This document shows, piece after piece, positions 47,919 to 64,000 of a stretch of DNA of 64,000 nt. The translations under genes and the position numbers were made by a program. The number at the start of each line of letters is the position of its first letter. Position 1 is the stretch's first letter. The notes below the pieces were generated by a model, which had not been told where the DNA came from, searched no databases, and saw nothing but the letters and a program-made list of their open reading frames with translations. This DNA comes from Thermoproteota archaeon (GTDB lineage: Archaea > Korarchaeota > Korarchaeia > Korarchaeales > Korarchaeaceae): assembly GCA_026986575.1 (NCBI GenBank), contig JALSOH010000006.1, positions 352,001 to 416,000 on the forward strand, given 5' to 3'.

Positions 47919-48503
47919 TCACTTGAACACACTATCTATTAACCTTCTAAGAGTTTTCCTGACTTTAGGTGGATTGTCCACAGAGATGGGCAACCTCTCA
48001 ATGCTCTTCCTCAGAACCTCCTTCAGGTCAAGATCTAGCTCACTGCTCATCGCTTTCACATACTCCCAGTCGATCCTATCCCCGACCTCCGTGAGTATAA
48101 CCGCTATATCAGCGAGGTCCCTCTCCCTGCGAGCTAGTGCCTTGAGTAAGAGCGCATCCTCGGGCGATATGACCCATACCCTCCTCCCGTCAATTTCCGC
48201 CTCTACGGCCCTCTCTAAGAGCTGCCTCACGCTCAATCCAGAGACTCTCTCCACATAAACGTCTATATCCCCTTTCATCCTATGCTTAAATTCGAGCTTT
48301 CCGAGGCGAGGGTTCTCCAACAAAACATAGCCCATACCAGATAATCCCTGCTTAAGCTTCCAGAGATCTGCCGGATCTACAGCGACATCGACATCATGGG
48401 TGGTCCTGAAAGGCCTGATGGCCGATACAGCCAGAGCTCCAAGTAGCGCGTACCTGACCTTTCTCTCCTCCGCTACGGATAAGAAATCTTCAATAGAGGA
48501 CAT
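47919..48503 (-). CDS. Nucleotidyltransferase, AbiEii-like toxin
   Basis: LGALAV...RTTHDVD, LLKA..RERDLAD; overlaps the upstream HTH gene. Confidence 0.75.
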   Translation of the reverse strand: MSSIEDFLSVAEERKVRYALLGALAVSAIRPFRTTHDVDVAVDPADLWKLKQGLSGMGYVLLENPRLGKLEFKHRMKGDIDVYVERVSGLSVRQLLERAVEAEIDGRRVWVISPEDALLLKALARRERDLADIAVILTEVGDRIDWEYVKAMSSELDLDLKEVLRKSIERLPISVDNPPKVRKTLRRLIDSVFK

Positions 48504-49155
48504 CAGTCATCTCCTCCACAACTGTAGGGATCTTCCCACCGAGGGCTGCCAGATCCAGAACGCCTCTCCCCAACCAGGTGATGAGCTCCAACTTCAACCT
48601 CTCCTCCGTCACCACCGGCCAACCAGATATAACCTCGCTAGCTGGTAGCTCTCTCACTGGGATGAGGACGAGATCAGCCAGCCCGTGGGCCCTCCTTCCC
48701 AGAGAGATCCATCTCTCTAAGTCCCGCTCCCTCACATAGGCAAAGGCTGCAGACGGTGTCTGGAACCCTGTTCTTATGTAAGCAGCCGTTTCGTAGCATA
48801 GCACGTAGTCATCTCCCTCACTACTTTCCTTAAGGAGCTCCATTGATCTCTTCCAGCCTCCGGCCTGGAGACGCACGGCCCTATCAAACAGCTTCTCTAT
48901 GTGGAAAACTCCCAGTACATCCTCAGCCTCCATTTTACCAATGATCTTGGCCCTATCAGTCGGGATAAAGACATTCTCCTCTCTTCTGAGCCATCCCCTA
49001 TCTTCAAGTTCTCTCATCTTTCTATAGACAGTAGTCTTTGGTAAAGATGCCTCAATAGCAGCTCTAGAGGGAGTTAGGGGTCCCCTGAGGGCGAGCCATA
49101 TGAGGAAGAGGGAGGACTCATCTATTCCCATATATGGTAAGAGACCCACTTTCAT
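48490..49155 (-). CDS. HTH protein with AbiEi-like C-terminal domain (putative antitoxin)
   Basis: N-terminal wHTH (PKTTVYRKMRELEDRGWL); YETAAY...P...AYV; PVVT.ERL.LEL...GRG. Confidence 0.65.
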   Translation of the reverse strand: MKVGLLPYMGIDESSLFLIWLALRGPLTPSRAAIEASLPKTTVYRKMRELEDRGWLRREENVFIPTDRAKIIGKMEAEDVLGVFHIEKLFDRAVRLQAGGWKRSMELLKESSEGDDYVLCYETAAYIRTGFQTPSAAFAYVRERDLERWISLGRRAHGLADLVLIPVRELPASEVISGWPVVTEERLKLELITWLGRGVLDLAALGGKIPTVVEEMTDVLY

Positions 49156-49442: not shown

Positions 49443-50759
49443 ATGAACTTGCGTTCCCTGTTAGAGCGCTTGACTAATGAGGAAGACGCATCTATACGTG
49501 TGGCCATTAATGAGTCCTCCGATCCTCCCGTGATAAGGAGAAGCTATTCCCAAATTTTCTATGGAAAGGATCTCCCACCTCAACCGCCTGTGGAGGTAAT
49601 TAAAGCGGGGGACCTGCGGGATGCCGACCTGTTCGTTGCGGTCGACTTGGTAATCTCCCTGACGGGAGCTTCCTCCCCCGATGAGGTCAAATCTGGAGCT
49701 GAATCTCTCCTTAGAGAACTAGCTAGGAAGGTAAGGTTGAGGGCGGAGGACTCGAAGAAGAGCAATGTGGCGCTGGCCCTGCCAGAGAGGCGCCACTTGG
49801 AGGAGGTTAAGGGAAAGTGGACCAAGTGGGTGTGGAAGCGAACTGCCTACGACGGGACCCCAGCTCCAGACTTCAATGGCTGGGTCAGGGACTTGATCTC
49901 TTTGGCAGATGCAATAAGGGGGGAGGGAGTGAGGGTCGTCTTCATGGCTGGCGAGTCCGGCAAGGTTCTGGAGGAGATGGGATACGAGGTCGTCAGTGTG
50001 AGCATCGAGGAGACGCTGCCTAAGCTGGGCTACCCTAGGGATCCCAGCGTAGCGTGGTCCGAGCAGCCGATCCTCATGAACATGGCGCTGGACATAAGGG
50101 GGGGCGAAGAAGAGGTCGCTAGATCCTTCTTTCAGAAGAATGGCTTGACTCCGGTGTTCAGGCCTAGGTGGTGGCGTAATGGTGAGATACTCGTCAGAGC
50201 CAAGGCCGAGGGAGGGAACTTCATACTGGTCGAGGGGGAGGGAGGGAAACGAGCCTTGTTCACCGGAATTGGAGTTAGGGGGAGTAACGTGGCCGCTCCC
50301 AAATTACTCCAAGAGTTCCTCATCTCGCAGGGCCTGAATATCGAGGTTTACGGGGTTCCCCTACCCGGCTACATACGGGATTGGCGAACAGGGGCCGTCC
50401 ATCTCGACGTTGTGATGATGCACGCAGGTCCCGTGACTTTCGTGAGCCCGGGCAGGATGGGGTTCTACTCACTTGTTAAGTACGGCGAGTCCCTCGAGAT
50501 AGTAGAGTTGGGTCAAGTGTTCCGTGACTTGGGCATAACAGTGGACGAGATACCTGCTGAGGGCAGCGAGATCACCATGGTGAACGGTCTCAACTTGGGG
50601 AACGGGAAGATAGTGGTGGATTCCTTCAACAGGGACGCGAACAGGTACTTGGAGAGGGAGTGGGGGCTAGACCTCATTGAGGTGAGCATACCCCAGATAG
50701 AGGCCGGCGGCGGAGGTGCGAGGTGCGCTACTAGGGAGTTCTACGTATCACGCGAGTGA
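49443..50759 (+). CDS. Arginine deiminase / amidinotransferase (pentein) family enzyme
   Basis: YPRDP, AEGGN, HLD, NGLNLG, GGGARC catalytic Asp/His/Cys pattern. Confidence 0.85.
   Translation: MNLRSLLERLTNEEDASIRVAINESSDPPVIRRSYSQIFYGKDLPPQPPVEVIKAGDLRDADLFVAVDLVISLTGASSPDEVKSGAESLLRELARKVRLRAEDSKKSNVALALPERRHLEEVKGKWTKWVWKRTAYDGTPAPDFNGWVRDLISLADAIRGEGVRVVFMAGESGKVLEEMGYEVVSVSIEETLPKLGYPRDPSVAWSEQPILMNMALDIRGGEEEVARSFFQKNGLTPVFRPRWWRNGEILVRAKAEGGNFILVEGEGGKRALFTGIGVRGSNVAAPKLLQEFLISQGLNIEVYGVPLPGYIRDWRTGAVHLDVVMMHAGPVTFVSPGRMGFYSLVKYGESLEIVELGQVFRDLGITVDEIPAEGSEITMVNGLNLGNGKIVVDSFNRDANRYLEREWGLDLIEVSIPQIEAGGGGARCATREFYVSRE
50709..50744 (+). repeat. Left direct repeat (attL-like), inside the 3' end of the deiminase gene
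   Basis: GGCGGAGGTGCGAGGTGCGCTACTAGGGAGTTCTAC, identical to 54514-54549. Confidence 0.95.
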
Positions 50760-50886
50760 GCTATCGTAAAACCCCTCAAGGAACTCATTGCTTTTCTAGA
50801 TGGGAAGAATCGGGCTACTTTACCGCTGATTAGATATACTCAATAGTTCAGCCGTTATTCCGACCCATACCGTAGGAAAAGGGGAA

Positions 50887-52257
50887 TTAGAGAGGAACGT
50901 CGCACAGGTATCTCAACATAAACAGAGAGAGCAGCAAGATGCAAGTATCTATCAGCAGGAAGGCAGAGTACAGCGCACCTACATCCACCACGAACCCGTT
51001 CAGTGATTCCAAGAAGACCATGATGAACACGGACTCGGCCACTACCATGATGGGGGTGAGCTTTAACCACCCAATGGACTGGAAGGTCCACATGGATTCT
51101 CTCTTCGGTAGCAGCCTGCATATCAGGAGATTATACAGGGAGGAGAAGGATATCACGGTAAAGATGAATACTGTGAGGTAGTAGACCAAGTTCCCTCCTG
51201 AGATCAGTGAAAATACGACGATAGGGATGTTTATCGCGAGACATATGATCACGTAAAGGGCGTACTTCGACAGGGAGACCTGTAACTTGGTTAAAGGCAG
51301 GATATAGAGGAGGGAAGAGCCAGAGCCCTCCAAGGAGTACAACCAGATTGTGAAGAGAGGGAGTATCACACCCAGCTCCAAGAGGGAAGCCAAGGTCAGG
51401 TTGAGCAACGCCGCGTTTGAACTTACTTCAGAAGTGTAGATCGTGATGATAGAGTGTGGAAATACGGAAAATAGTATTAAAGCCAGTATCCAAGGTCTCC
51501 TCCTGATCAAGATCAACTCCTTCTTTAGGAGAGTCATGTGAGGCAATTCTGCGTACTCATTCCCGGCAGGAGCGACATTAGGAAACTCATGCAATCTCCC
51601 TATTACTCTACCGAAGGCCATTGCAGTTAAGTAGAAATATCCTATCAGAAGTATACTTCTCTCTAAGATAGACGAGCTAAAGAGAATCGTAAGAAGAGGA
51701 CCTAAATACGTAAAAAGAATAATAGAACCTACCCAACTTAAGGTGATTAACCACGGAACTCTCCTAAATGAAATTTCCACGCAGGCCATTCCCAGTATAG
51801 TACCTAATACAGCTAGAAAACTACTAAGCCATACTAGGATGAAGATAGCATTAAACCGGAAGTCGAGGAGAGTATAGTAGGGGGGGATTAAGAGCGGGGA
51901 GAGGGCAAGACCACCCCAAAGTAAATGCGCAATAATTACTGCTGCAATGACAGTTCTAGGCCTAATAGGCAACATCAGTATTGGCATCAGAGACTTAGTG
52001 TCCTTGATAGATCTGTAATTGATAATAGACAGTGTAAAGAACGAAAATATATAAACCAGTTGACTAACTTTAATGTAAGATTGAATACTATCTCCATCTC
52101 TAACCAATATTATGAGGAAGAAGGACATTATGATAGAGGCTATAAATAGCAAAATATTAGACAATAGAATCCTAACTAAACTAATAGAATTACCACTTCT
52201 ATAGCTTCCTTCGCGGATTATTATCAAAGCTATCCGGAGAGGCAGAGGAATTCTCAA
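50887..52257 (-). CDS. ABC-2-type exporter permease (multi-TM)
   Basis: About 12 TM helices; LLKKEL..IRRRP and EG...LLYILPLT motifs; aligns by eye with the permease at 62849. Confidence 0.75.
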   Translation of the reverse strand: MRIPLPLRIALIIIREGSYRSGNSISLVRILLSNILLFIASIIMSFFLIILVRDGDSIQSYIKVSQLVYIFSFFTLSIINYRSIKDTKSLMPILMLPIRPRTVIAAVIIAHLLWGGLALSPLLIPPYYTLLDFRFNAIFILVWLSSFLAVLGTILGMACVEISFRRVPWLITLSWVGSIILFTYLGPLLTILFSSSILERSILLIGYFYLTAMAFGRVIGRLHEFPNVAPAGNEYAELPHMTLLKKELILIRRRPWILALILFSVFPHSIITIYTSEVSSNAALLNLTLASLLELGVILPLFTIWLYSLEGSGSSLLYILPLTKLQVSLSKYALYVIICLAINIPIVVFSLISGGNLVYYLTVFIFTVISFSSLYNLLICRLLPKRESMWTFQSIGWLKLTPIMVVAESVFIMVFLESLNGFVVDVGALYSAFLLIDTCILLLSLFMLRYLCDVPL

Positions 52258-52359: not shown

Positions 52360-52986
52360 TTAATCCAATGTGAAAATAACAACGTTATATATATGGATAT
52401 ATAGCAAAATAGCTAAGGAAAAGATAGCTGAAGATGCACACCTTATATCGAATTTTCCGGATAATTTATATAAGGAACATAGCCAGAAAAAGAAAATTAT
52501 CAAGTCTATTGCTATAAACAGATAAGGGCTAATGATAAGATCAAATTCGGACCTCAATAATATAAAAAAAGAAGGTATTACAAATTCAATTAGTCTAAGT
52601 AGAAAGACCGAACTCTCTCCTATCTGAAGAAATATCAAATAAAATCCGAAGCTTAGGAGCGTGTCTCTTAATTTTATTGTATGTTCCTTACAGAAAGTCG
52701 TAATGGTTAAGTAAAATATCTCAGTAACAAGGAATAGGACGAATAAACTAGCTAACCCATGTGCAAGAAAACCTGCCGCGATCACTAAGAATAATCCTCC
52801 AAGAAAATTCTGAAGAAGCACCGTAAATTCTCTGAGGAGATACATTGTCAAACTTGTAGTATACAATAGAGATGAGATCAGTATAGTTGATAGTAGAATG
52901 ATAACCTTTCGATGAGGGCTAACATTATCTAGAAAAAGACAGAAACCCCAAACTCTATTCAATATCCTGATTACAAGGAATTTCAC
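52360..52986 (-). CDS. Yip1-like membrane protein
   Basis: 208 aa, 5-6 hydrophobic helices; divergent from the peptide gene; family call rests on topology and context. Confidence 0.5.
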   Translation of the reverse strand: MKFLVIRILNRVWGFCLFLDNVSPHRKVIILLSTILISSLLYTTSLTMYLLREFTVLLQNFLGGLFLVIAAGFLAHGLASLFVLFLVTEIFYLTITTFCKEHTIKLRDTLLSFGFYLIFLQIGESSVFLLRLIEFVIPSFFILLRSEFDLIISPYLFIAIDLIIFFFWLCSLYKLSGKFDIRCASSAIFSLAILLYIHIYNVVIFTLD

Positions 52987-53049
52987 AAGAATGCCTCCTT
53001 TAGACTCATAATACCATGTTCTCTGACCGGTGCGTTGATCTTAAGTAAA

Positions 53050-53060
53050 TTTTTATATAT
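53050..53060. promoter_or_regulatory. TATA box of the divergent island promoter
   Basis: TTTTTATATAT about 30 nt upstream of the peptide GTG, between divergent genes. Confidence 0.55.
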
Positions 53061-53090
53061 TTGCGCCCTAATTATAAATGTGGTGGTTCC

Positions 53091-53345
53091 GTGGATCAGA
53101 GGAAAATAGTTTCAGTAATCCTGATGTTGCAAATCATATTTCTTGCGGCGCCCTTTTGGATGAGCGGAAAAGCAGGAATGATATGGGGAGCTATAGCATA
53201 TCACGTCCATACACATTATCATAACCATCTAGCTTCGCACGTAGCTTTACATATGGCTATCACTCATATCATGATATACACCTTAGCAGGGTCTGGGTTT
53301 GGACCCATCGGAGCGTTAGCTGGCTTTCTAATAGGAATAGCATAA
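53091..53345 (+). CDS. Putative bacteriocin/archaeocin precursor peptide (84 aa, His-rich)
   Basis: GGTGG RBS plus GTG; leader-like MDQRK+hydrophobic stretch; core with 8 His and a Gly-rich hydrophobic end GSGFGPIGALAGFLIGIA; upstream of SpoIIM. Confidence 0.7.
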   Translation: MDQRKIVSVILMLQIIFLAAPFWMSGKAGMIWGAIAYHVHTHYHNHLASHVALHMAITHIMIYTLAGSGFGPIGALAGFLIGIA

Positions 53346-53385: not shown

Positions 53386-53796
53386 ATGTTATCCAAAAAG
53401 CGAAATCTTGTTGGTATTATGATATTTTTCATACTCATGACAATTTTCTTCGGAGTCTTTTCATATCAGTTGTGGATCTCTGAACCGGAGGATTTCCTCT
53501 TATATTTCGCTGTAGGATTTACCTCTAGCATTCTTATATTCCTACTTTTCTCTGGAGATGTTGATCCTTTGGATATGTCTTGGAGGGGAATAGATGTAAA
53601 AGATAGGAGAACTCTCCTAAAGTATCTAATCTTAATAGGCCTAGTAGGTGCACTGCTAGGATCAGCACTCCCTCATGCTCTTGGATATCAGAATGAATTT
53701 CTGTATATAGCAGCTTGGTATACAGTAGGGCTGGGTGTAGCAGTTGCTTCGCTCTTGATATTGCCCATACTCAGCTATTTTCATAACAGAAAATAA
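53386..53796 (+). CDS. Small 4-TM membrane protein, candidate immunity protein
   Basis: GGTGAGGAG RBS; four hydrophobic helices, basic termini; directly after the peptide gene. Confidence 0.6.
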   Translation: MLSKKRNLVGIMIFFILMTIFFGVFSYQLWISEPEDFLLYFAVGFTSSILIFLLFSGDVDPLDMSWRGIDVKDRRTLLKYLILIGLVGALLGSALPHALGYQNEFLYIAAWYTVGLGVAVASLLILPILSYFHNRK

Positions 53797-53811: not shown

Positions 53812-54435
53812 GTGGATGTTATAAATATCGGTGAAAAAGGTATTTGGATAGCAGCTCTTCTCCTGTATTTTGTGGGGTTCGGCTTGTCTCTTCTGGACAA
53901 CTCCACCCTGCAACATCCTACTACTCTCCGATGGAAATACATTGACTTAAAACTAAATCGCGAATATTATTTTATAATTACCTATGATTTTTTTAAAATT
54001 TGTCGAATGGATGACTACTCAAAAATTAAACTCATTTTGATAAACAATTTAGAGAGTGTTGTATTGACTGTGATGGGAGGAGTTGCTCTCTCGATACCGA
54101 CCGTCGTATCTACACTGTACAATGGATATCTTTTTGGCTCTTTTATCGGAGGTGCGCTTGCGAGTGGGCTAAGTTTAATCGAAATAATAAAACTAACTGT
54201 GTTTCATGGATTTATAGAGATAGCAGGATTCTTGATGGCGACTGTTGCAGGAATGCGTATCTCACTTTTATTAAAAGATTTATTGATATCATTACCTGAA
54301 GATCAAGATTTCTCTAAGAAGATGCGATTAAAAATTATAAGTATTATGAAACTCTTCCTATACTCTCTAATTTTTATTACTATAGCGGGATTGATAGAGG
54401 TGTACATCTCAATAGACCTAATCCTCTGCGGATAA
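53812..54435 (+). CDS. SpoIIM/DUF95-family membrane protein
   Basis: NN....L, NG...G, HGFIE, G..I and IAGLIEVYIS signature motifs. Confidence 0.85.
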   Translation: MDVINIGEKGIWIAALLLYFVGFGLSLLDNSTLQHPTTLRWKYIDLKLNREYYFIITYDFFKICRMDDYSKIKLILINNLESVVLTVMGGVALSIPTVVSTLYNGYLFGSFIGGALASGLSLIEIIKLTVFHGFIEIAGFLMATVAGMRISLLLKDLLISLPEDQDFSKKMRLKIISIMKLFLYSLIFITIAGLIEVYISIDLILCG

Positions 54436-54513
54436 CTCACCTATATTAATTTTAGGCAAATAATCAGGAGTTTCACTTACCTGCTATTTTGAAACAGCCA
54501 AATTGAGGCTGGA

Positions 54514-54549
54514 GGCGGAGGTGCGAGGTGCGCTACTAGGGAGTTCTAC
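54514..54549 (+). repeat. Right direct repeat (attR-like); orphan copy of the deiminase 3' end
   Basis: Identical to 50709-50744; 54499-54555 reads QIEAGGGGARCATREFYK-stop. Confidence 0.95.
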
Positions 54550-55224: not shown

Positions 55225-56154
55225 GTGATCTTGAGGCGTATGAAACCAAATGGCCTGACGATCATCCTCCTGCTGGTAGTCGCGCTATCCCTCTCCCAGC
55301 TCATGTCTCAGAGCATCACCGCCCGAATAGAGCCCTCTTACATAGAAGCTTCTCCAGGGGAGAGCGTTGATCTGAGGTTGATCGTGAGGAACTTGGGCTC
55401 TAAGGAGATAGAGGTCACCGGGCTGAGGGTTTACGTCACTTCGGAGGAGGTGTTCTTCCTACCCATCCGCGCCAACTTCGGCGAGTATCAGATCCCCTTC
55501 GACGAGCCCACTAAGGTGGCACCCGGCGAGGAGGAGGCGATTCACAAGACCATCGAGGTCCCTGACGTGCCCGTCTTCGGCAAATTCCTCCTCAAGATCC
55601 GAGTGGAGACCACGGGCGGGAATGCTTTCTCCCTGCTGAGGGTCGATCTCAAACATTCGAACACTTCCATAGGGGTCTTCCTCTTCCTCCTGCTGGTACT
55701 CCTGCTCATAGTCTACGCGTTGATCAGGATGGTTAGGGGCAGGCTCTCCAGCGCTGGGAGGTTCAAGAGGAGGGTGAGCAAGGTCGATGCCCTCCTTGCC
55801 GAGAAGGAGAGGATCTTGGAACTGATGAGGAGGCTGGAGGAAAAGAGAGGGGAAGGGAAAGTAGGGGAGACTGAGTACAGGAGACTCAAGGAGGAGTACG
55901 AGAGGTCCCTCCGGGAGGTGCAGGCTAAGCTGGACTCGTACTTGGAACCGTTCAAATCCATGCTGGCGAACATAGAGCAGGAGATAGAGAAGCTCAAGGA
56001 GGATAGGGAGGTGGTGAGGGCCAAGATGGAGGTGGGCGATCTCTCCAAGGGAGAAGGGAAGAGAGCACTCAAAGAGAAGAATAGGGCCATCAAATCGCTG
56101 GAAGAAAGGGCTAGGGTCCTGAGGGACAGGATAGAGAGGATAGAGAGGACCTGA
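55225..56154 (+). CDS. Membrane protein: Ig-like ectodomain, TM, cytoplasmic coiled coil
   Basis: Signal/TM, beta-rich domain, second TM, Glu/Lys/Arg heptads. Confidence 0.7.
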   Translation: MILRRMKPNGLTIILLLVVALSLSQLMSQSITARIEPSYIEASPGESVDLRLIVRNLGSKEIEVTGLRVYVTSEEVFFLPIRANFGEYQIPFDEPTKVAPGEEEAIHKTIEVPDVPVFGKFLLKIRVETTGGNAFSLLRVDLKHSNTSIGVFLFLLLVLLLIVYALIRMVRGRLSSAGRFKRRVSKVDALLAEKERILELMRRLEEKRGEGKVGETEYRRLKEEYERSLREVQAKLDSYLEPFKSMLANIEQEIEKLKEDREVVRAKMEVGDLSKGEGKRALKEKNRAIKSLEERARVLRDRIERIERT

Positions 56155-62848: not shown

Positions 62849-64000
62849 ATGCATTGGAGGAGGGCTGCAGAGATCATAGCCATGGAAGCAGCCTACAGAT
62901 CAGCCAGAAAGCATGGAAAGGGTAGGGAGTTCATCAGGATAACAGGGAGGAGCGCCCTGAGGTATAACATCCTCCTAGCCGTCATGTTCTCCCTACTATC
63001 TTCTTCCCTCGGACTGGGAGCACTCCTCGGGAGGGAGGTATCATATCTCCTCCTCTCCATGCTCTTTATGATGGATGTGGTCATGGGAATCCTCACAATG
63101 GCCCTGAACCTTCAGATGCTCATCTCTGACAGGCTGCTGGATCCCCTCAAGCAGCTCCCCATAGATGAAGGGGGAGTCAGGAGCATCTTGCTCTGGATAG
63201 GCTTATACTGGGGAGGCGCCGCTCTTCCCTTTCTCCTCATGCCGGCTGGTCTGATATCCTCCCTCATATTGAGGGACCTGTCCACACTGCTAGCAAGCGT
63301 GCTGATGTCATTCTCGTCGCTCAACCTTTCCCTTGGACTGGGGTACCTAGCCGGGTCGTACAGCGCTAACTACACGAAGAGCGGGAAGGGGCTATTGAGA
63401 TCGACCCTCGCTTGGCTGTCTCTATTGAGTTTAGGATTCGCTATAGGTCCCGTCGCGTCATGGTTCCTGAGCTCCATCGAGACAGGAGCCCGCATACCTG
63501 AATGGATGGTCCCCTTGAGCTTCTGCTACCTCACCTCACCACGCGCCCTCATCTCATCCTCGGCGCTCCTCTTCCTGTCAGTGGCTATCATGACCCTCGG
63601 CTCCAAGAGGTTCTGGAGGAAGATATCGGTCGGGGAGGTCTCGGCACCCCCGCGTCCCCCGAAGTGGAGCCTGACCAGTGGACTGTGGGCGGCTCTGCTC
63701 AGGGAGATGAGAATAGTCCTCAGGACCCCGAGAGTCCTAGCCTCCCTGATAATATATTCCTTGGTCTTCCCGGTATCCCTCATATCACCCCAGAAGACCT
63801 TCCTAGGCGGCTTCCTAGGTCCGAACTATACATCTCTGTTTATGCTCTCGGTTGGGGGGCTTGGGGGATTCTCAGTGGTCTACCTCTATATATCCGAGTC
63901 CTCTGGGGCCAAGGCCCTGTACCTGCTTCCCCTGACCAGATCTAGAGTGGCAGCCATCAAGACACTCGCCTTCCTCCTCCTCAACCTGCCGCTCCTCTTA
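62849..64000 (+). CDS. ABC-2-type exporter permease, runs off the window end (absent from the ORF track)
   Basis: GGAGG RBS plus ATG; open frame MHWRRAAEIIAMEAAYRS...ALYLLPLTRSRVAAIK with many TM helices. Confidence 0.8.
   Translation, partial: MHWRRAAEIIAMEAAYRSARKHGKGREFIRITGRSALRYNILLAVMFSLLSSSLGLGALLGREVSYLLLSMLFMMDVVMGILTMALNLQMLISDRLLDPLKQLPIDEGGVRSILLWIGLYWGGAALPFLLMPAGLISSLILRDLSTLLASVLMSFSSLNLSLGLGYLAGSYSANYTKSGKGLLRSTLAWLSLLSLGFAIGPVASWFLSSIETGARIPEWMVPLSFCYLTSPRALISSSALLFLSVAIMTLGSKRFWRKISVGEVSAPPRPPKWSLTSGLWAALLREMRIVLRTPRVLASLIIYSLVFPVSLISPQKTFLGGFLGPNYTSLFMLSVGGLGGFSVVYLYISESSGAKALYLLPLTRSRVAAIKTLAFLLLNLPLLL

Follow-up and report, generated by a model that had tools for sequence, protein, structure and literature searches.

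The window analyzed here, a stretch of 64,000 nucleotides of a Thermoproteota genome from a sequencing run labelled as a hydrothermal vent metagenome, carries a low-GC island of 3.75 kb (GC 0.30-0.39, vs. about 0.54 in the surrounding DNA) that is bounded by 52-nt direct repeats. The left repeat (50693-50744) falls within the 3' end of an arginine-deiminase-like gene (49443-50759) and the right repeat (54498-54549) just upstream of a rubrerythrin gene. The two copies are identical at 48 of their 52 positions (92%), the similarity stops at the repeat ends, and five genes are bracketed exactly.

Gene content and insertion site of the island

Three of the five genes lie on the forward strand. They run from an 84-aa peptide with a ladder of histidines (53091-53345), through a 136-aa membrane protein with an acidic loop and no family match (53386-53796), to a 207-aa SpoIIM/DUF95 membrane protein (53812-54435; PF01944, E = 1.1e-17, 64.9 bits vs. 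a cut-off of 26.9), the gene for which is found 470 nt downstream of the peptide. Judged only from its position, the 136-aa protein is a candidate immunity or accessory protein. The other two genes are divergent from the peptide gene and occupy the reverse strand: the nearer one codes for a 208-aa multi-pass membrane protein of no known family (52360-52986), and the farther one for a 456-aa multi-pass membrane protein (50887-52257) with a sub-threshold match to the permease-like Pfam family 12TM_1 (PF09847, E = 0.0026, under the curated cut-off). The 456-aa protein has paralogues only (23-31% identical), one of which is encoded in this genome after an ABC ATPase; no ortholog of it was recovered in the relatives. 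The 208-aa protein shows no detectable relation to the membrane proteins of about 200 aa in the other islands described below. Searches of the peptide and the island against Pfam, NCBIfam, PADLOC, PDB sequences and Rfam returned nothing beyond SpoIIM and the sub-threshold 12TM_1 match. No ATP-binding (ABC) protein is present among the five ORFs between the direct repeats, and neither an integrase in the island nor a tRNA in positions 40000-64000 of the window was found.

Comparison with the corresponding loci of 12 relatives bears on how the island came to be there. In four of these (G011, G009, G010 and G005) the rubrerythrin gene directly follows the arginine-deiminase-like gene, with the flanking protein being 85-91% identical; a fifth locus is cut off before the site could be judged, and in none of the seven more distant loci is there a rubrerythrin gene within reach. 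Given the empty site in these relatives, the island is a 3.75-kb insertion. A diverged copy of all five island genes (80-93% identity) was found in contigs of another public run, X4, and the five genes therefore travel together. In the X4 copy the left flank diverges at position 50878, and 29 other letters take the place of the promoter segment 52999-53081; its version of the peptide region has a possible 1-nt gap at 53185, at a depth of 5.6.

The histidine-ladder peptide and its predicted structure

The translation of 53091-53345 on the forward strand, which begins with a GTG codon, gives exactly the 84 residues that had been read in an earlier note on this DNA, and the account given there of the ladder, the charged residues and the tail holds in each respect. 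Residues 1-23 (53091-53159) form a signal-like leader, the N-terminal segment starting with positive charge and continuing as a hydrophobic stretch of 17 residues that includes a proline; the putative core behind it comprises 55-61 aa. Past residue 23 there is a single lysine (K27) and not one Asp or Glu. The ladder itself occupies residues 38-59 (53202-53267), with histidines at positions 38, 40, 42, 44, 46, 50, 54 and 59, i.e., eight in 22 residues; its codons are a mixture of CAC and CAT, and it is thus not a DNA repeat. The peptide closes with a hydrophobic Gly-zipper tail (residues 67-84, GSGFGPIGALAGFLIGIA, 53289-53342) of the pattern G67xG69xG71xxG74xxxG78xxxG82, with GxxxG spacings, which reaches the stop codon: the last residue, A84, is directly followed by TAA, leaving no C-terminal extension. 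We also observe that the C-terminus falls exactly at a hydrophobic residue, as it does in circular bacteriocins.

Upstream of the gene lies a putative promoter and ribosome-binding stretch (53050-53086, forward strand), consisting of a TATA-like TTTTTATATATTT (53050-53062) and a Shine-Dalgarno-like GGTGG (53082-53086) ahead of the GTG. An alternative TTG start at 53061 would give a 94-aa form; since it falls within the promoter-like stretch, we retained the GTG as the start. An archaeosortase- or pilin-type signal was rejected on inspection of the sequence, which has no class III signal and does not show the combination of a C-terminal sorting motif and a basic tail.

To gauge how unusual the ladder is, the whole genome was translated in six frames, giving 11,199 open segments of at least 60 aa. 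At least eight histidines in 22 residues occur in six of them, and an HxHxHxH run in nine. Hence, the density of histidine is not by itself exceptional in this genome; the five-rung HxHxHxHxH run is unique to this peptide among the nine segments.

If the ladder is helical, H38-42-46-50-54 forms an i,i+4 series about 24 Å long, which drifts slowly round the helix, with H40, H44 and H59 placed on its other faces. The computed helical hydrophobic moment of the segment is low (0.05-0.2), and it is therefore not a classical amphipathic helix. HxH runs and i,i+4 pairs of histidines are classical ligands of Zn, Ni and Cu. The earlier proposal of a pH-switchable charge agrees with the charge computed for the cyclised core, which, with a generic histidine pKa of 6, rises from about +1 at pH 8 to +5 at pH 6 and +9 at pH 4. 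A pH- or metal-dependent switch would be both chemically plausible and ecologically sensible.

The earlier note had also asked whether structure prediction would give a saposin-like bundle with adjacent termini. The AlphaFold2 models are of low to middling confidence, and that of the full precursor (pLDDT 64) is too weak to use. That of the core (residues 24-84; pLDDT 74.4, pTM 0.40) has just a long helix and a short one, at core positions 4-45 and 48-60, and no compact bundle; as the alignment behind it comprises two sequences, the model speaks neither for nor against a fold of that kind. A Foldseek search of the core model against the PDB gave no match at E <= 0.001.

Homologues and paralogous islands

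Across two very large protein libraries the peptide has a sole homologue, P0002, an 88-aa protein encoded on a 964-base contig. The two are 69% identical by BLASTP (73% in the alignment) over their full length, with conserved termini. P0002 keeps H38, 40, 42, 44, 50, 54 and 59, and has Glu in place of H46. The earlier note had asked whether the histidines are conserved or hypervariable in homologues: they are conserved at seven of the eight positions, a figure that carries little statistical weight as it comes from a single homologue. The first 22 and last 26 residues are also well kept, the Gly-zipper tail being nearly invariant, and the junction at residues 23-29 is variable. The 4-aa insertion that P0002 has at this junction points to a variable linker between the leader and the conserved core.

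Beyond this pair the family appears to be very rare. A word-index search of 5.8 billion proteins returned only the peptide itself and P0002, and a profile search run exhaustively with HMMER over 1.84 billion representatives added to its own cluster just two long proteins, of 2,031 aa (E = 8e-5) and 1,038 aa (E = 3e-4), which, with their many matched stretches, we took to be low-complexity or compositional matches. The peptide is absent from the 60 related genomes searched, in which the matches were at chance level only, with stops or inside long ORFs. A first metagenome scan found nothing. A second scan yielded a single locus (L060), on a high-GC contig, where a 418-aa membrane ORF immediately precedes an ABC-ATPase ORF; it was rejected, as the Gly-zipper tail had aligned by chance with a transmembrane helix of the 418-aa ORF. 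In searches of Pfam (E up to 10), NCBIfam (E up to 1) and PDB sequences (E up to 10), the peptide matched no bacteriocin family; the precursor families PF09221, PF12173 and PF16942 and the NCBIfam circularin A/uberolysin model were among those without a match. Likewise, no metal-transport or metal-binding family of Pfam or NCBIfam was matched at permissive thresholds.

The arrangement of the genes is less solitary than the peptide. The genome has five SpoIIM genes, four of which are short (186-217 aa) and situated in low-GC islands, the fifth being an open frame of about 460-475 aa in DNA of normal GC. In each of the four islands the short SpoIIM comes after a peptide of 81-103 aa on the same strand, and these peptides are typified by a positively charged start, a hydrophobic stretch with a proline, and a hydrophobic or Gly-rich C-terminus at the stop codon. 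Among the paralogous islands, one also encodes two permease-like proteins and an ABC ATPase (PF00005, E = 1.6e-30), and in another the gene for a membrane Peptidase_M48 (E = 3e-22) separates the peptide from SpoIIM. The four island SpoIIMs are mutually related (25-30% identity, E = 1e-4 to 2e-12). With hhalign, which gave probabilities of 0.1-5%, no homology was detected either between the four peptide families or between the islands' accessory membrane proteins. BLAST comparisons with composition correction off had hinted at kinship among the accessory proteins and peptides; these hints were distrusted after hhalign, the SpoIIM pairs excepted. The parallel among the islands therefore rests on SpoIIM and the architecture. 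The two members of the family studied here have 8 and 7 histidines, as against 0-3 in the other three peptide families, and the His array is therefore specific to this family and not to the system.

A SpoIIM match was obtained in 34 of the 41 archaeal genomes searched. It is thus a common housekeeping-type gene in archaea, and its presence alone is weak evidence. Within the same genus, SpoIIM was found in 17 of the 20 genomes searched, in 14 of these as a single copy, which in most is an open frame of about 475-500 aa. G003, G019 and G020 have additional short copies (five, one and two, respectively), some of which, in the stretches examined, lie next to members of three of the peptide families described above. 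Such a sporadic distribution of the short copies is typical of accessory competition loci.

Comparison with circular bacteriocins

SpoIIM/DUF95 has been described as class-defining for the gene clusters of circular bacteriocins (PMC13289728) and as present in almost every one of them (PMC7132975), and both it and a gene for an ATP-binding protein have each been called obligatory (PMC8534725). According to the in-silico surveys consulted, nearly all circular bacteriocins belong to Bacillota. When the island SpoIIM was used as the query of a word-index search, it was the only protein returned. A tblastn search with it against 72,556 plasmids gave one match, on the Bacillus thuringiensis plasmid NZ_CP017573.1 (30% identity over 142 aa, pairwise E = 5e-11), where the matched SpoIIM follows a gene annotated as 'circular bacteriocin, circularin A/uberolysin family'. 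The two loci thus share the order of precursor followed by SpoIIM as well as the relationship of the SpoIIMs themselves. They differ in that the B. thuringiensis precursor is a Lys-rich protein of 64 aa with a short leader, and its cluster has an ABC ATPase; a direct comparison of the 583-aa membrane protein of that cluster with the 456-aa protein of the island detected no similarity.

In a language-model atlas, the His peptide resembled a PF12173 cluster (0.89, with 170 shared features), followed by PF09221 (0.87) and PF16942 (0.81), scores that are leads only, lying below 0.9 by the tool's own calibration. The peptide of one paralogous island resembled the same kinds of cyclic-bacteriocin clusters with somewhat stronger scores (0.92 with 189 shared features and 0.90 with 174), likewise to be read as leads.

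The cores of circular bacteriocins are about 58-70 aa long. The 84-aa precursor studied here would divide into a leader of 23-29 aa and a core of 55-61 aa; the leaders of circular bacteriocins are given as 2-48 residues, with those of group ii being long and the group as a whole having lower pI and net charge and higher hydrophobicity (PMC6131525). It is this group (e.g., gassericin A, acidocin B, butyrivibriocin AR10 and plantaricyclin A; PF12173, BacteriocIIc_cy) that the peptide resembles in several respects, namely the size of the precursor (about 80-90 aa), a long predicted leader, a hydrophobic core of low fixed charge, a Gly/Ala-rich C-terminus at the stop codon and SpoIIM/DUF95 in the cluster. 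Its top look-alike in the atlas is also the PF12173-bearing cluster. Unlike the group ii bacteriocins, however, this peptide has no PF12173 match, comes from an archaeal host and not from Bacillota, and has eight histidines in its core; furthermore, its island lacks an ATP-binding protein, the core model is not a four-helix bundle, and cyclisation of the peptide is putative.

The gene-cluster premise of the earlier note is supported by this context. Its interpretation of the peptide finds partial support: the position upstream of SpoIIM/DUF95, the match of that SpoIIM to the B. thuringiensis one, the atlas look-alikes, the His array kept in the one homologue and the computed charge speak for it, but neither a precursor-family match nor an ATP-binding protein was found. 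The cassette is circular-bacteriocin-like in its layout, yet it is archaeal, has no ATPase and no precursor-family match, and uses His where Lys or Arg would be usual.

Halocins and sulfolobicins are known archaeal antimicrobial peptides or proteins. The peptide shares with them, and with the archaeal lanthipeptides (PMC10105419), an archaeal origin and a presumed role in competition. The open-access literature searched gave no sign that the known archaeal antimicrobials are associated with SpoIIM/DUF95 or arranged like circular-bacteriocin clusters. It likewise contained no description of an archaeal bacteriocin cluster with SpoIIM, or of a circular bacteriocin rich in histidine.

Possible functions of the peptide

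The gene most likely specifies the precursor of a secreted antagonist that acts on membranes and would be the archaeal equivalent of the group ii-like circular bacteriocins, which are hydrophobic and of low charge. That it is a bacteriocin-like, membrane-active peptide with a pH-titrating charge, produced from a mobile SpoIIM cassette, is the explanation we favor, and we give it an even chance; granted that much, ring closure has at best about the same prospects of being right as of being wrong. The N-terminal segment would act as a leader or signal and be removed near residues 23-29, releasing a core of 55-61 residues that may then be joined head to tail. This core would enter target membranes by way of its Gly-zipper tail and its hydrophobic N-terminal part, with the eight histidines standing in for the usual Lys/Arg patch. 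Such a peptide should have hardly any charge at the pH of seawater but a strong positive one below about pH 6; alternatively, Zn, Ni or Cu bound by the i,i+4 pairs of histidines might charge the peptide or cross-link it. SpoIIM/DUF95 and the three other membrane proteins could provide for export, maturation and self-protection.

A bolder version of this explanation, which we put forward as speculation and consider improbable, has the peptide as the first archaeal toxin of the circular bacteriocin type and the His ladder as its working part, with H38-42-46-50-54 lining an oligomeric transmembrane assembly as a relay for protons or metals. Inactive at the pH of seawater, the peptide would turn into a pore that conducts cations or behaves like a protonophore once in the mixing zone of a hydrothermal vent, where the water is acidic and rich in metals. 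Its cassette would then belong to a larger, so far unrecognised group of mobile cassettes in Thermoproteota that link a peptide to SpoIIM.

The bacteriocin-like explanation has to be weighed against others, of which the nearest is that the product is a linear, Sec-type exported peptide toxin without a head-to-tail ring. Signal peptidase would cut it, possibly after the conserved G-x-A at 26-28, the linear core would act on membranes, and SpoIIM and its neighbors would only help in export or confer immunity. The N-terminus does look like a signal peptide, with its positive residues, hydrophobic stretch and small residues, and the core model does not bring the termini together. Moreover, in the case of leucocyclicin Q the mature circular peptide is reported to be made even without the DUF95 protein (PMC7132975); SpoIIM therefore does not by itself imply cyclisation. 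On the other hand, in each of the four peptide families the C-terminus is hydrophobic or Gly-rich and free of a charged tail, like that of circular precursors, the atlas look-alikes are clusters of cyclic and not linear bacteriocins, and the cleavage site at 26-28 is a guess. Hence, we regard a linear toxin as unlikely, albeit a serious contender.

Departing further from secretion, the peptide might be retained as a small integral membrane subunit with three membrane-associated helices, the ladder of which handles metal ions or protons, e.g., as a Zn-, Ni-, Co- or Cu-binding or conducting partner of the 12TM_1-like permease and SpoIIM. This would suit the metal-ligand chemistry of HxHxH and i,i+4 His pairs, the replacement of H46 in P0002 by Glu, which keeps a ligand-type residue, the permease-like 456-aa protein of the same island, and the hydrothermal vent label of the run, which denotes a metal-rich setting. 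However, eight histidines in one segment would be costly to bury as a lone transmembrane helix by the hydrophobicity scales, no family for metal transport or binding was matched, and the three paralogous islands have the same layout with peptides of 0-3 His, so that the system as such is not metal-specific. A sporadic, mobile, low-GC island that is absent from 60 related genomes is also unlike a homeostasis gene, and this alternative is accordingly a rather doubtful one. Lastly, the ORF could be spurious, its richness in histidine having come about by chance in AT-rich DNA, for which the chance His-dense windows in 6 of the 11,199 six-frame segments might be cited. This is hardly credible given the promoter-like and Shine-Dalgarno-like signals, the presence of the sequence in the diverged X4 copy of the island, and the full-length, 69% identical homologue with conserved termini from another contig. 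That homologue, and the position upstream of SpoIIM that recurs in the three paralogous islands, establish the ORF as a real gene.

If the cassettes do make secreted peptides, hydrothermal archaea carry a mobile and diversifying arsenal of the circular-bacteriocin type, of which four unrelated peptide families are already present in one genome of 1.9 Mb, and SpoIIM-guided genome mining could open up the poorly known field of peptide antagonism in archaea. If the peptide is instead a retained subunit, it would point to a new role for SpoIIM-family proteins alongside small partner peptides.

The His variant would also offer a natural test of histidine as a stand-in for the Lys/Arg patch, one by which membrane attack might become dependent on pH or metals, and this is of interest for peptide engineering. 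pH- and metal-linked behavior is described for the His-rich animal peptides clavanins and histatins (PMC8424629, PMC5198042; for histatin 5, PMC8583803), which are like the archaeal peptide in having multiple histidines, to which a pH-dependent charge and the binding of Zn or Cu are ascribed. They are unlike it in being short, linear eukaryotic peptides of unrelated sequence, with neither a Gly-zipper nor a SpoIIM cassette.

Integration site and promoter of the His-ladder cassette

The low-GC cassette that carries the His-ladder peptide is bounded by two copies of a 52-nt direct repeat (window positions 50693–50744 and 54498–54549), which is a duplicate of the 3' end of the gene for an arginine-deiminase-like protein. 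This duplication indicates that the cassette inserted into the terminal part of a coding sequence; the island itself lacks an integrase gene. Just upstream of the insertion site, on the minus strand (47919–49155), lie the genes for a 194-aa DUF6036/NTP_transf_5-type nucleotidyltransferase and a 221-aa winged-helix protein (TrmB/IclR-like), with the former overlapping the end of the latter; these may constitute a toxin-antitoxin-like or regulatory pair.

A diverged copy of the island in the public sequencing run X4 has 29 other letters in place of the 83 bases at 52999–53081, the stretch that separates the divergently transcribed gene for a 208-aa protein from the gene for the His-ladder peptide. 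Thus, variation within the cassette is greatest in the promoter region.

Low-GC islands elsewhere in the genome

Three further low-GC islands combining a small peptide with a SpoIIM protein are found in the same genome, all outside the window. The fullest circular-bacteriocin-like layout in the genome is that of L010 (contig C4:149285–152973), where genes for a peptide of roughly 100 aa, a SpoIIM and a membrane protein of 197 aa are accompanied by those for an ABC ATPase and a pair of permease-like proteins. It is adjoined by very GC-rich DNA (0.62–0.69), and copies of it are present in the related genomes G020 (L046) and G003 (L043). In the island L011 (C4:163695–166034), the gene for an 81-aa Gly/Ala-rich peptide is followed by genes for a membrane Peptidase_M48 protein of 323 aa, a short SpoIIM of 186 aa and another membrane protein, of 199 aa; a near-identical counterpart exists in G020 (L047). 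The Peptidase_M48 protein of L011 might serve as leader peptidase or in immunity. L009 (contig C1:32242–33989) combines an 86-aa Trp/Tyr-rich peptide with a SpoIIM of 189 aa and two membrane proteins, one small and the other of 235 aa, with a near-identical counterpart in G019 (L045) and a diverged one in G003 (L042).

Membrane-protein paralogues and a neighboring coiled-coil protein

Paralogues of the 12TM_1-like membrane protein of the His-ladder island include two on the same contig, C6. One, of 492 aa (C6:414849–416327), extends from window position 62849 past the window end at 64000; it shows 28% identity to the island protein over part of its length and lacks an adjoining ATPase on its upstream side. 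The second (C6:442805–444292) is directly preceded by an ABC ATPase.

Beyond the island, a 309-aa protein (window 55225–56154, plus strand) with no family match has a signal or anchor segment at its N-terminus, together with a beta-rich domain, a single transmembrane helix and a long coiled-coil tail rich in Glu, Lys and Arg.
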